DNA of 64,000 bases. It comes from a virus. Lineage: Duplodnaviria > Caudoviricetes. The notes below the pieces were generated by a model that was not told where the DNA came from, did no database searches, and saw nothing but the letters and a program-made list of their open reading frames with translations. The stretch is taken from positions 136,234 to 200,233 of the IMG/VR virus record IMGVR_UViG_3300033463_000011; one strand, written 5' to 3'. Position numbers and translations under genes: made by a program. Position 1 is the stretch's first letter. Each line of letters opens with the position of its first letter. Below, in pieces: positions 43,791 through 44,247 of the stretch.

Positions 43791-44247
43791 TGAATTTAAA
43801 GGCACTCACAGCAATCTTTATAATCATTTATAGGAAATGCAGACATAGTGCCTTGTTAAGCCTCAACAGGGTAGCTACCTGCGAGGTTATGTCACAGCGA
43901 CGGCTATGAATATTTTCATTGCCTAAGGAGTTTGGTGGGTTCTCCTTAAAAATCCATCACCAGCGGGTACAGGCATCCCGCAGAGTTCTCACAGCAGTTT
44001 GGTAGGTTCTGCTGATGTATATGAATCTTTTTTTGTTGCGTATTATCTCTTTCATATACATAATCAAAAACCTATCACCAACCTCTCCATTGAGTTAGCC
44101 ACTAGGAGATGGAGATGTTCGGGCAAAGGCTAATGCCACGGAACAGTGACCTATATCTATCCGCTGGTCAGGTGAGTGTCTGATATATGCACAATAGAAG
44201 AGTGGATTATATACTTTCGAGTGTACCCATAATATATCATCAAATAT

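Follow-up and report, generated by a model that had tools for sequence, protein, structure and literature searches.

Conserved pseudoknotted RNA units ending in CCA in rumen and gut phages: candidate acceptor-branch mimics for RNase P

Pseudoknots and other tRNA-like ends

Mimicry of the tRNA end by a pseudoknot is textbook material for plant RNA viruses. In the tRNA-like structures of TYMV and TMV, an H-type pseudoknot provides an acceptor-like helix that ends in NCCA. More generally, the branch formed by the acceptor and T arms is what tRNA-end enzymes measure, and a tRNA-like end recruits tRNA-processing enzymes to a non-tRNA transcript in the C4 RNA of P1/P7, the tmRNA precursor, the t-elements of plant mitochondria and the mascRNA of MALAT1. 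These RNAs have nested acceptor/T-arm or cloverleaf-like folds, whereas the phage units described here, termed PK-CCA units, are pseudoknots.

A small H-type pseudoknot with a 3' RCCA is itself a substrate of bacterial RNase P, which cuts it in loop 1; the reaction is RCCA-dependent and proceeds fastest when N-1 is U (PMC12710915, 2025). The TYMV tRNA-like structure is also a substrate in vitro, and a U precedes its RNase P cleavage site (PMC12710915). RNase P model substrates (pPK+GCCAC and minihelices of the pATSer type) share with the phage units a coaxial helix, a 3' RCCA and the preferred U(-1), and their expected cut, in loop 1 or at -1/+1, is where cleavage of the phage units is predicted. 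The model substrates are engineered; the phage units, in contrast, occur naturally, are conserved and covary, and their cleavage is predicted.

A further parallel comes from tRNAs with an 8/4 or 9/3 division of acceptor and T stem, in which the 12-bp branch is reported to be kept while the helix split shifts (PMC5389517). The phage units likewise combine about 8 with 4-5 bp, but those tRNAs are complete and decoding, whereas the units have no T loop, D arm or anticodon arm. The ROOL and GOLLD RNAs come from a rumen and Firmicutes phage context, adjoin tRNA genes and are possibly co-transcribed with them (PMC5737381); they are 580-800 nt long with a multi-junction fold, in contrast to PK-CCA units, which are 40-nt modules.

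A preliminary description of the locus drew the analogy to TYMV, which stands for the pseudoknotted acceptor arm that ends in CCA and fails for the rest of the molecule. The phage units lack anticodon, D and T domains, measure about 40 nt, occur in several copies per genome and lie inside the tRNA arrays of DNA phages, as genes internal to transcripts; they do not form the 3' terminus of an RNA genome. Literature searches returned the RNase P and pseudoknot biochemistry, the plant-virus tRNA-like structures and the ROOL and GOLLD RNAs near tRNAs, but not this phage element, and Rfam 15 has no family of its kind.

Two pseudoknots in a phage RNA island

The DNA analysed, hereafter the window, is the 64-kb terminal part of a 200,233-bp IMG/VR virus record. 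All genes in it are oriented on the + strand, and the best DNA matches to the phage are bovine gut metagenomes. An RNA island in the window is flanked 3' by a short-chain dehydrogenase (SDR) gene and 5' by a fusion gene, a single ORF (42180-43139) that directly precedes the island and joins an XRE-type HTH, sigma-70 region 4 and the RNA polymerase alpha C-terminal domain (alpha-CTD). The island contains two adjacent units, copies B and C, with the following elements.

43140-45617, + strand: RNA island without ORFs, containing copies B and C
43141-43153, + strand: promoter-like phage motif AATCGTTATTAAC, which opens the island (from motif enrichment)
43924-43930, + strand: copy B, S1 5' strand TAAGGAG, pairing with CTCCTTA at 43942-43948
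43931-43933, + strand: copy B, loop 1 UUU, with U43933 as the -1 base
43934-43941, + strand: copy B, S2 5' strand GGTGGGTT, acceptor-like, with G+1 at 43934
43942-43948, + strand: copy B, S1 3' strand CTCCTTA (from sequence and family alignment)
43949-43950, + strand: copy B, loop 3 AA, A-rich, longer with the outer S1 pairs open
43951-43962, + strand: copy B, S2 3' strand AATCCATC, with discriminator A43959 and CCA at 43960-43962
43963-43981, + strand: spacer hairpin GCGGG-TACAGGCAT-CCCGC between B and C; relatives have GCGGATACTATCCGC there
43992-43997, + strand: copy C, S1 5' strand CAGCAG, pairing with CTGCTG at 44009-44014
43998-44000, + strand: copy C, loop 1 UUU (from sequence and family tallies)
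44001-44008, + strand: copy C, S2 5' strand GGTAGGTT (from sequence and covariance model)
44009-44014, + strand: copy C, S1 3' strand CTGCTG (from sequence and tandem relatives)
44015-44061, + strand: copy C, 11-bp hairpin in loop 3, ATGTATATGAA ... TTCATATACAT, pairing 44015-44025 with 44051-44061
44062-44080, + strand: copy C, linker AATCAAA, S2 3' strand AACCTATC, discriminator A44077 and CCA at 44078-44080

Direct reading of the sequence bears out the stems, loops and CCA that the preliminary description assigned to both copies, together with the 11-bp hairpin inserted in copy C. As first drawn, L1 of copy B is TT (43931-43932), and its S2 pairs TGGTGGGTT (43933-43941) with AATCCATCA (43951-43959) over 9 bp, including 2 G.U pairs; the corresponding S2 of copy C pairs TGGTAGGTT (44000-44008) with AACCTATCA (44069-44077), also over 9 bp, with 1 G.U pair. 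The two copies have wholly different S1 stems, and their S2 stems are distinguished by one swap of G-C to A-U and one change of G.U to G-C. Their adjacency and shared loop sequence argue for paralogy.

General pseudoknot geometry makes 2-nt loops too short for helices of 7 and 9 bp. The full 7 + 9 bp pseudoknot of copy B with 2-nt loops would be sterically implausible, and its outer S1 pairs probably do not coexist with S2, because such loops cannot span both helices. The form typical of the family, with a UUU loop 1, an S2 of 8 bp, an S1 of 4-5 bp and a loop 3 of 4-6 nt, would be feasible.

Both strands of the 200-kb genome were scanned with a descriptor for a hairpin whose loop pairs with bases just 5' of a CCA. 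Of 12 loose matches, only B and C are strong, defined as an S1 of at least 6 bp and an S2 of at least 9 bp. Dinucleotide shuffles yield 9.4 loose matches, so that the other ten found in the genome are noise; the strict descriptor, in 30 such shuffles, gives a mean of 0.23 and a maximum of 2, against 2 observed. Taken alone, the pair is therefore modestly beyond chance only, and the decisive support comes from the family.

Searches against described RNA classes were negative in this region. ARAGORN returned nothing useful at B and C, either with introns allowed or with lowered thresholds, and the Rfam tRNA model (RF00005) has no match on 43924-44080 at E values up to 10. An Rfam 15 cmscan of 43100-45950, again at E up to 10, found nothing overlapping B; the sole match overlapping copy C, to RUF1 on the minus strand (16.4 bits against a gathering score of 70), was dismissed as spurious. 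The C4 and tmRNA families have no Rfam match at this locus, and ROOL and GOLLD have none in the 64-kb window at gathering thresholds or in 43100-45950 at E up to 10.

The same cmscan bears on the idea that the units are ligand-sensing pseudoknots akin to preQ1-I. In riboswitches of that type, an A-rich tail folds back to pair with the loop that follows a short P1, and PK-CCA units resemble them in gross layout alone, with an S1 of 4-5 bp, a loop of 11 nt and a loop 3 rich in A. A sensing role is very improbable: no Rfam riboswitch falls on B or C at E up to 10, and the 8-9-bp S2, the 2-3-nt loop 1 and the absence of a loop 2 leave no room for a pocket. The units, moreover, lie in tRNA arrays and not in the 5' leaders of metabolic genes, and their invariant RCCA would be needless for ligand sensing.

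A covarying family and the RNA islands that carry it

A first motif pattern for relatives found nothing, being too specific for a family in which S1 covaries, and a search with a bare 15-mer returned 73 loci, chiefly by chance. Pattern scans located units in three further IMG/VR contigs, one of them 467 kb long with three copies and another with an array of 23 tRNAs, and in a fourth of 33.8 kb (L098). Among 74 pattern-matching metagenome contigs, about 45-50 carry genuine units and the remainder are chance matches; the two groups are cleanly separable, with 0-1 S2 mismatches in the former versus 3-5 in the latter. Comparison of a 44-nt unit with deposited phages by blastn gave partial, chance-level matches, the best of which, in a Desulfovibrio phage, was rejected by the covariance model.

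This model, a search with which the preliminary description had proposed, was built from the relatives with S2 as its sole structure and run on 429 kb of fetched related loci. It gave 110 matches, 99 of them distinct and about 100 at E<1e-3, in 46 of the 56 loci searched. Within the 64-kb window, only copy B (56.6 bits, E 8e-14) and copy C (35.6 bits, E 2e-7) match. On sequence grounds, B and C are confirmed as members of a conserved phage RNA family of about 40 nt. The tandem of B, spacer hairpin and C is kept in three other contigs, including the hairpin inserted in C and a covarying spacer hairpin, and the loop-3 insertion of copy C is shared with the C-type units of L109, L142 and L144.

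PK-CCA units occur in rumen and gut viral and metagenome contigs, in a Clostridia MAG and in two Peptostreptococcaceae genomes, one of them in the prophage of an isolate. A search of the whole record of G001, a 175.6-kb relative phage, found five units in an equivalent RNA island of 3.8 kb at a non-syntenic site; S1 has a different sequence in each of the five, and S2 shows G-C/A-U/G.U swaps. The isolate, the cultured Peptostreptococcaceae bacterium VA2, carries a solitary unit (L173:6948-6989) in a prophage late operon, 3' of the gene for the major tail protein (6332-6943) and ahead of another gene that is major-tail-like (7009-7566), with no tRNAs nearby. A few unit variants have CCG or CTA in place of CCA; among sequences lacking CCA, one on the minus strand of L181 (~1575-1531) ends in ...TATCACCG, and those of L139 and L133 end in ...CACTA and ...CATCA.

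The preliminary description held that both stems covary. This is upheld for S2 and for inner S1; the outer part of S1 does not follow, since only its inner 4-5 pairs are conserved family-wide. S2 is about 96% paired in the family alignment, with double-sided changes at 6 of 8 pairs. Pairing of S2 reaches 96.6% in a set of 29 gap-free units, in which the four inner pairs of S1 are formed and covary strongly, while the three outer ones are mostly unpaired. Across the 99 distinct rows, 87% of the cells of the full pseudoknot are paired versus 82% after shuffling, and double-sided changes occur at 10 pairs (101 cells), values reached in 0 of 500 shuffles. Sliding the 3' partners by 1-3 columns lowers pairing to 31-61%. 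S1 was left out of the model, and its covariation is thus independent of the fitting; two of its pairs are informative, one with GC43/AU36 and the adjacent one with AU37/GC13/CG7/UA7. The covariation indicates that both helices matter, without implying that they form simultaneously.

These changes bear directly on a reading of the units as non-functional remnants, whether decayed tRNA genes, repeats that arose by chance or sites that act as DNA, for example phage attachment cores. Copies of tRNA 3' ends are common at the integration sites of phages, and in one genome the strict descriptor is only modestly beyond chance. A DNA site or a decaying gene would not, however, keep two helices by compensatory change in 99 distinct copies, nor does it fit that large phages have several copies per genome, all on the transcribed strand; the remnant reading is accordingly given very little weight.

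Tallies over 61 units define the tRNA-end features. U occupies -1 in 61/61 and G occupies +1 in 60/61, and the discriminator, A in 55 and G in 6, is followed by CCA; conservation is inflated in the several columns that the seed pattern fixed, a constraint that the model search partly relaxed. Counted from +1, S2 is 8 bp in 54/61, S1 is mostly 4-6 bp, and the two sum most often to 12-13 bp (12 bp in 21 units, 13 bp in 14), with 14 bp in a further 11. Loop 3 is mostly 4-6 nt and A-rich, with five invariant A's in the gap-free alignment. The +1:72 pair is distributed as GC82/AU8/GU6. Position 2:71 is unusual: 55 rows have G.U, 25 have U.U (counted as 'other') and 15 have A-U. An alanine-type identity was rejected, since the wobble pair lies at 2:71 rather than 3:70 and is often replaced by U.U or A-U. 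An acceptor stem with G2.U71 like that of copy B occurs in one phage tRNA-Glu (L145), but G2.U71 turns up in tRNAs of several types and so cannot point to any one identity.

The loci that hold the units contain as many as 35 tRNAs, and CCA is encoded in 295 of the 311 tRNAs found there. The units often begin 1-4 nt 3' of another CCA end; where a unit abuts an upstream CCA in this way, its S1 5' strand is, to judge from the layout, essentially the inter-gene spacer. One unit of G001 occupies the place that tRNA-Pro has in the window, directly 3' of a conserved RNA of about 250 nt. The preliminary interpretation is partly supported overall; its notion of minimal pseudoknotted tRNA mimics fits the siting in tRNA arrays, the encoded RCCA, U(-1)/G(+1) and the 12-13-bp stack.

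The island itself is a mosaic of modules common to phages, as seen in contigs of other rumen and gut runs. Among contigs of one metatranscriptome and three DNA runs, RNA cover over copies B and C was essentially nil. The 2.8-kb island as a blastn query has no match among deposited phages, the flanking regulator gene as query found no related loci, and the flanking SDR gene has nine relatives, all without an island at the syntenic place. The motif that opens the island, AATCGTTAT(W)3A, is over-represented in the window, with 11 occurrences against 3.1 expected, mostly in inter-ORF gaps on the + strand (sites at 40417, 43141, 13614, 23246, 35082, 39284, 50051, 57691 and 63435). Two copies open RNA islands, the one at 40417 opening the first tRNA cluster. 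The motif is also present in G001 and L181 and is probably a promoter of this phage group.

Besides B and C, the island carries a tRNA-Gln (45363-45436) and several oversized tRNA-like units that end in ...TTCACCA. Oversized units at 43680-43791, 44248-44397, 44558-44694 and 44700-44853 combine a D-like arm and a T arm with a perfectly paired acceptor stem of 7 bp; three of them end in an encoded ACCA, and long multi-hairpin inserts take the place of the anticodon arm. The unit at 44248-44397, with an 85-nt insert, is barely at the Rfam tRNA threshold, and homologues occur in G001, L025, L083 and L181. Directly 3' of copy C, a module starting ACCTCTCCATTGAGTTAGCCACTAGG (44081-44262) is also found 3' of PK-CCA units in at least six other contigs, including L124, L130, L145, L161 and L169. 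In several relatives, homology to the window begins at about 44063-44066, and in several a short hairpin with the loop UUUGUUAGGUU or UUUAUAUAGGUAU lies directly 5' of AAAACCUAUCACCA.

The conserved non-coding RNA of about 250 nt lies at 40843-41094 of the window and on the minus strands of L023 (~3962-3715) and L181 (~455-300). It begins right 3' of an ACCA end, has no Rfam match and ends in a hairpin, GGGAGG-ATGA-GCCTCCC; directly 3' of this hairpin lies tRNA-Pro in the window and, in G001, a PK-CCA unit. Upstream of the RNA, after tRNA-Leu, the interval 40529-40842 holds a tRNA whose anticodon loop measures 8 nt (ARAGORN assigns the anticodon 'tttc'); three ACCA-ended tRNA-like units then follow, abutting and each less complete than the last. 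The stretch at 44966-45131 is the deepest covered (summed contig depth of 313 and 154 in the metatranscriptome run) and recurs in many relatives' contigs; it contains ...CCGCACTGGG...CCTCATACTTGCGGTATA...GGGAACTTGG...GAGGTTGAGCC, resembles the 3' part of the 250-nt RNA and is likely a widespread phage ncRNA. Downstream of the island, at 46831-49542, a SNF2-family helicase gene is split by an intein with an HNH endonuclease domain.

Processing by RNase P and competing readings

The features of the family favour a reading, to which we assign a probability of about 0.6, in which a PK-CCA unit is a minimal pseudoknotted mimic of the acceptor branch that bacterial RNase P would cut in loop 1. The combination of U(-1), G(+1):C72, R73-CCA and a stack of about 12 bp with the precedent of a cleaved pseudoknot (PMC12710915) makes this the best of the explanations considered. 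The units have the RNase P substrate features of a 3' RCCA able to pair with the GGU of P15/L15, U(-1), G(+1) and G+1:C72, and the summed length of S1 and S2 suffices for a coaxial helix of about 12 bp, given that the two would stack.

S2, from G+1 to about +8 and paired with 65-72, would mimic the tRNA acceptor stem and lead into the purine discriminator and encoded CCA, while S1, at 4-5 bp, would stack beneath it in place of a T stem to form a helix of 12-13 bp. The units would be transcribed within phage tRNA and tRNA-like arrays, in the present case within an island that has the promoter-like motif at 43141. Host RNase P would then cut in loop 1 at the bond that joins the invariant U(-1) and G(+1), predicted to be between 43933 and 43934 in copy B and between 44000 and 44001 in copy C, and the 3' side would be trimmed to, or retained at, the CCA by the host tRNA-end machinery. 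Such processing would separate neighbouring RNA modules and free an ACCA-ended minihelix of about 30 nt, or about 80 nt from copy C. The phage has no match to a CCA-adding enzyme (PF01743), RtcB (PF01139) or RNA ligase (PF09414) and would therefore depend on host enzymes. The most economical role would be punctuation, of the polycistronic RNA islands of the phage and, in the prophage, of an mRNA.

Two considerations temper the RNase P reading. A cut in loop 1 severs the S1 5' strand from the product, so that the pseudoknot would act in the precursor only. This sits oddly with the invariant A-rich loop 3, a feature typical of stable, lasting H-type pseudoknots, and counts against cleavage. The tRNAs of the arrays, moreover, already provide RNase P sites, and a pure spacer role thus leaves 3-5 copies per genome unexplained.

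One rival is a 3'-terminal protective cap, which corresponds to the second idea of the preliminary description (exonuclease-resistant 3' ends) and in which the intact pseudoknot keeps its S1 5' strand and ends the upstream RNA. Exonucleases would trim to the CCA and halt, and CCA repair would maintain the end, stabilising the upstream RNA or mRNA. The invariant loop 3 speaks for such a cap, as do two placements: the solitary VA2 prophage unit directly 3' of the major tail gene, where differential mRNA stability would be useful, and the G001 unit directly 3' of the terminal hairpin of the 250-nt RNA. Many units, however, lie 1-4 nt past a complete ...CCA end, which leaves no upstream RNA body to protect, and U(-1), G(+1) and RCCA favour RNase P cleavage, by which the cap would be removed from the upstream RNA. 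A cap is unlikely on balance, although it is the strongest of the rivals.

The copy number bears on a proposal that adds to the processing model and does not exclude it. Minihelices might be mass-produced as tRNA 3'-end dummies, abundant and ACCA-ended, that soak up host factors for the tRNA 3' end or acceptor stem, host enzymes or anti-phage toxins among them, or that are aminoacylated or CCA-tagged; the pseudoknot may then serve to allow their maturation by RNase P although they lack a complete tRNA body. Toxins that act on the tRNA 3' end, modifying or cutting CCA, do exist. Multiple copies per genome would suit such decoys, as would the conservation of the S2 sequence itself (GGUAGGUU/AACYUAUC) beyond its pairing, the conserved non-Watson-Crick position 2:71 and the crowding of the same islands with other ACCA-ended tRNA-like units that lack anticodon arms. 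Yet the loci read show no linkage of the units to genes for defence or counter-defence, the units display no recognisable set of identity elements for aminoacylation (their G.U falls at 2:71 instead of 3:70), and the literature searched has no precedent for decoys of this sort; this proposal is more doubtful still than the cap.

PK-CCA is a compact, strongly covarying 40-nt module present in many rumen and gut phages, including phages of 200-470 kb, and in the prophage of a Clostridia-class isolate. Under the RNase P reading, the units would be a natural counterpart of the engineered pseudoknot substrates of RNase P, and they help to account for the way in which large phages might have their ORF-free RNA islands divided into parts. 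They also provide a recognisable annotation marker for such islands, and the VA2 prophage unit offers a cultured system. If the released minihelix has an activity of its own, phages would possess an RNA effector of a new type; if it acts as a decoy, the units would constitute a new class of RNA-based element for anti-defence or the manipulation of translation across the tRNA islands of rumen and gut phages.
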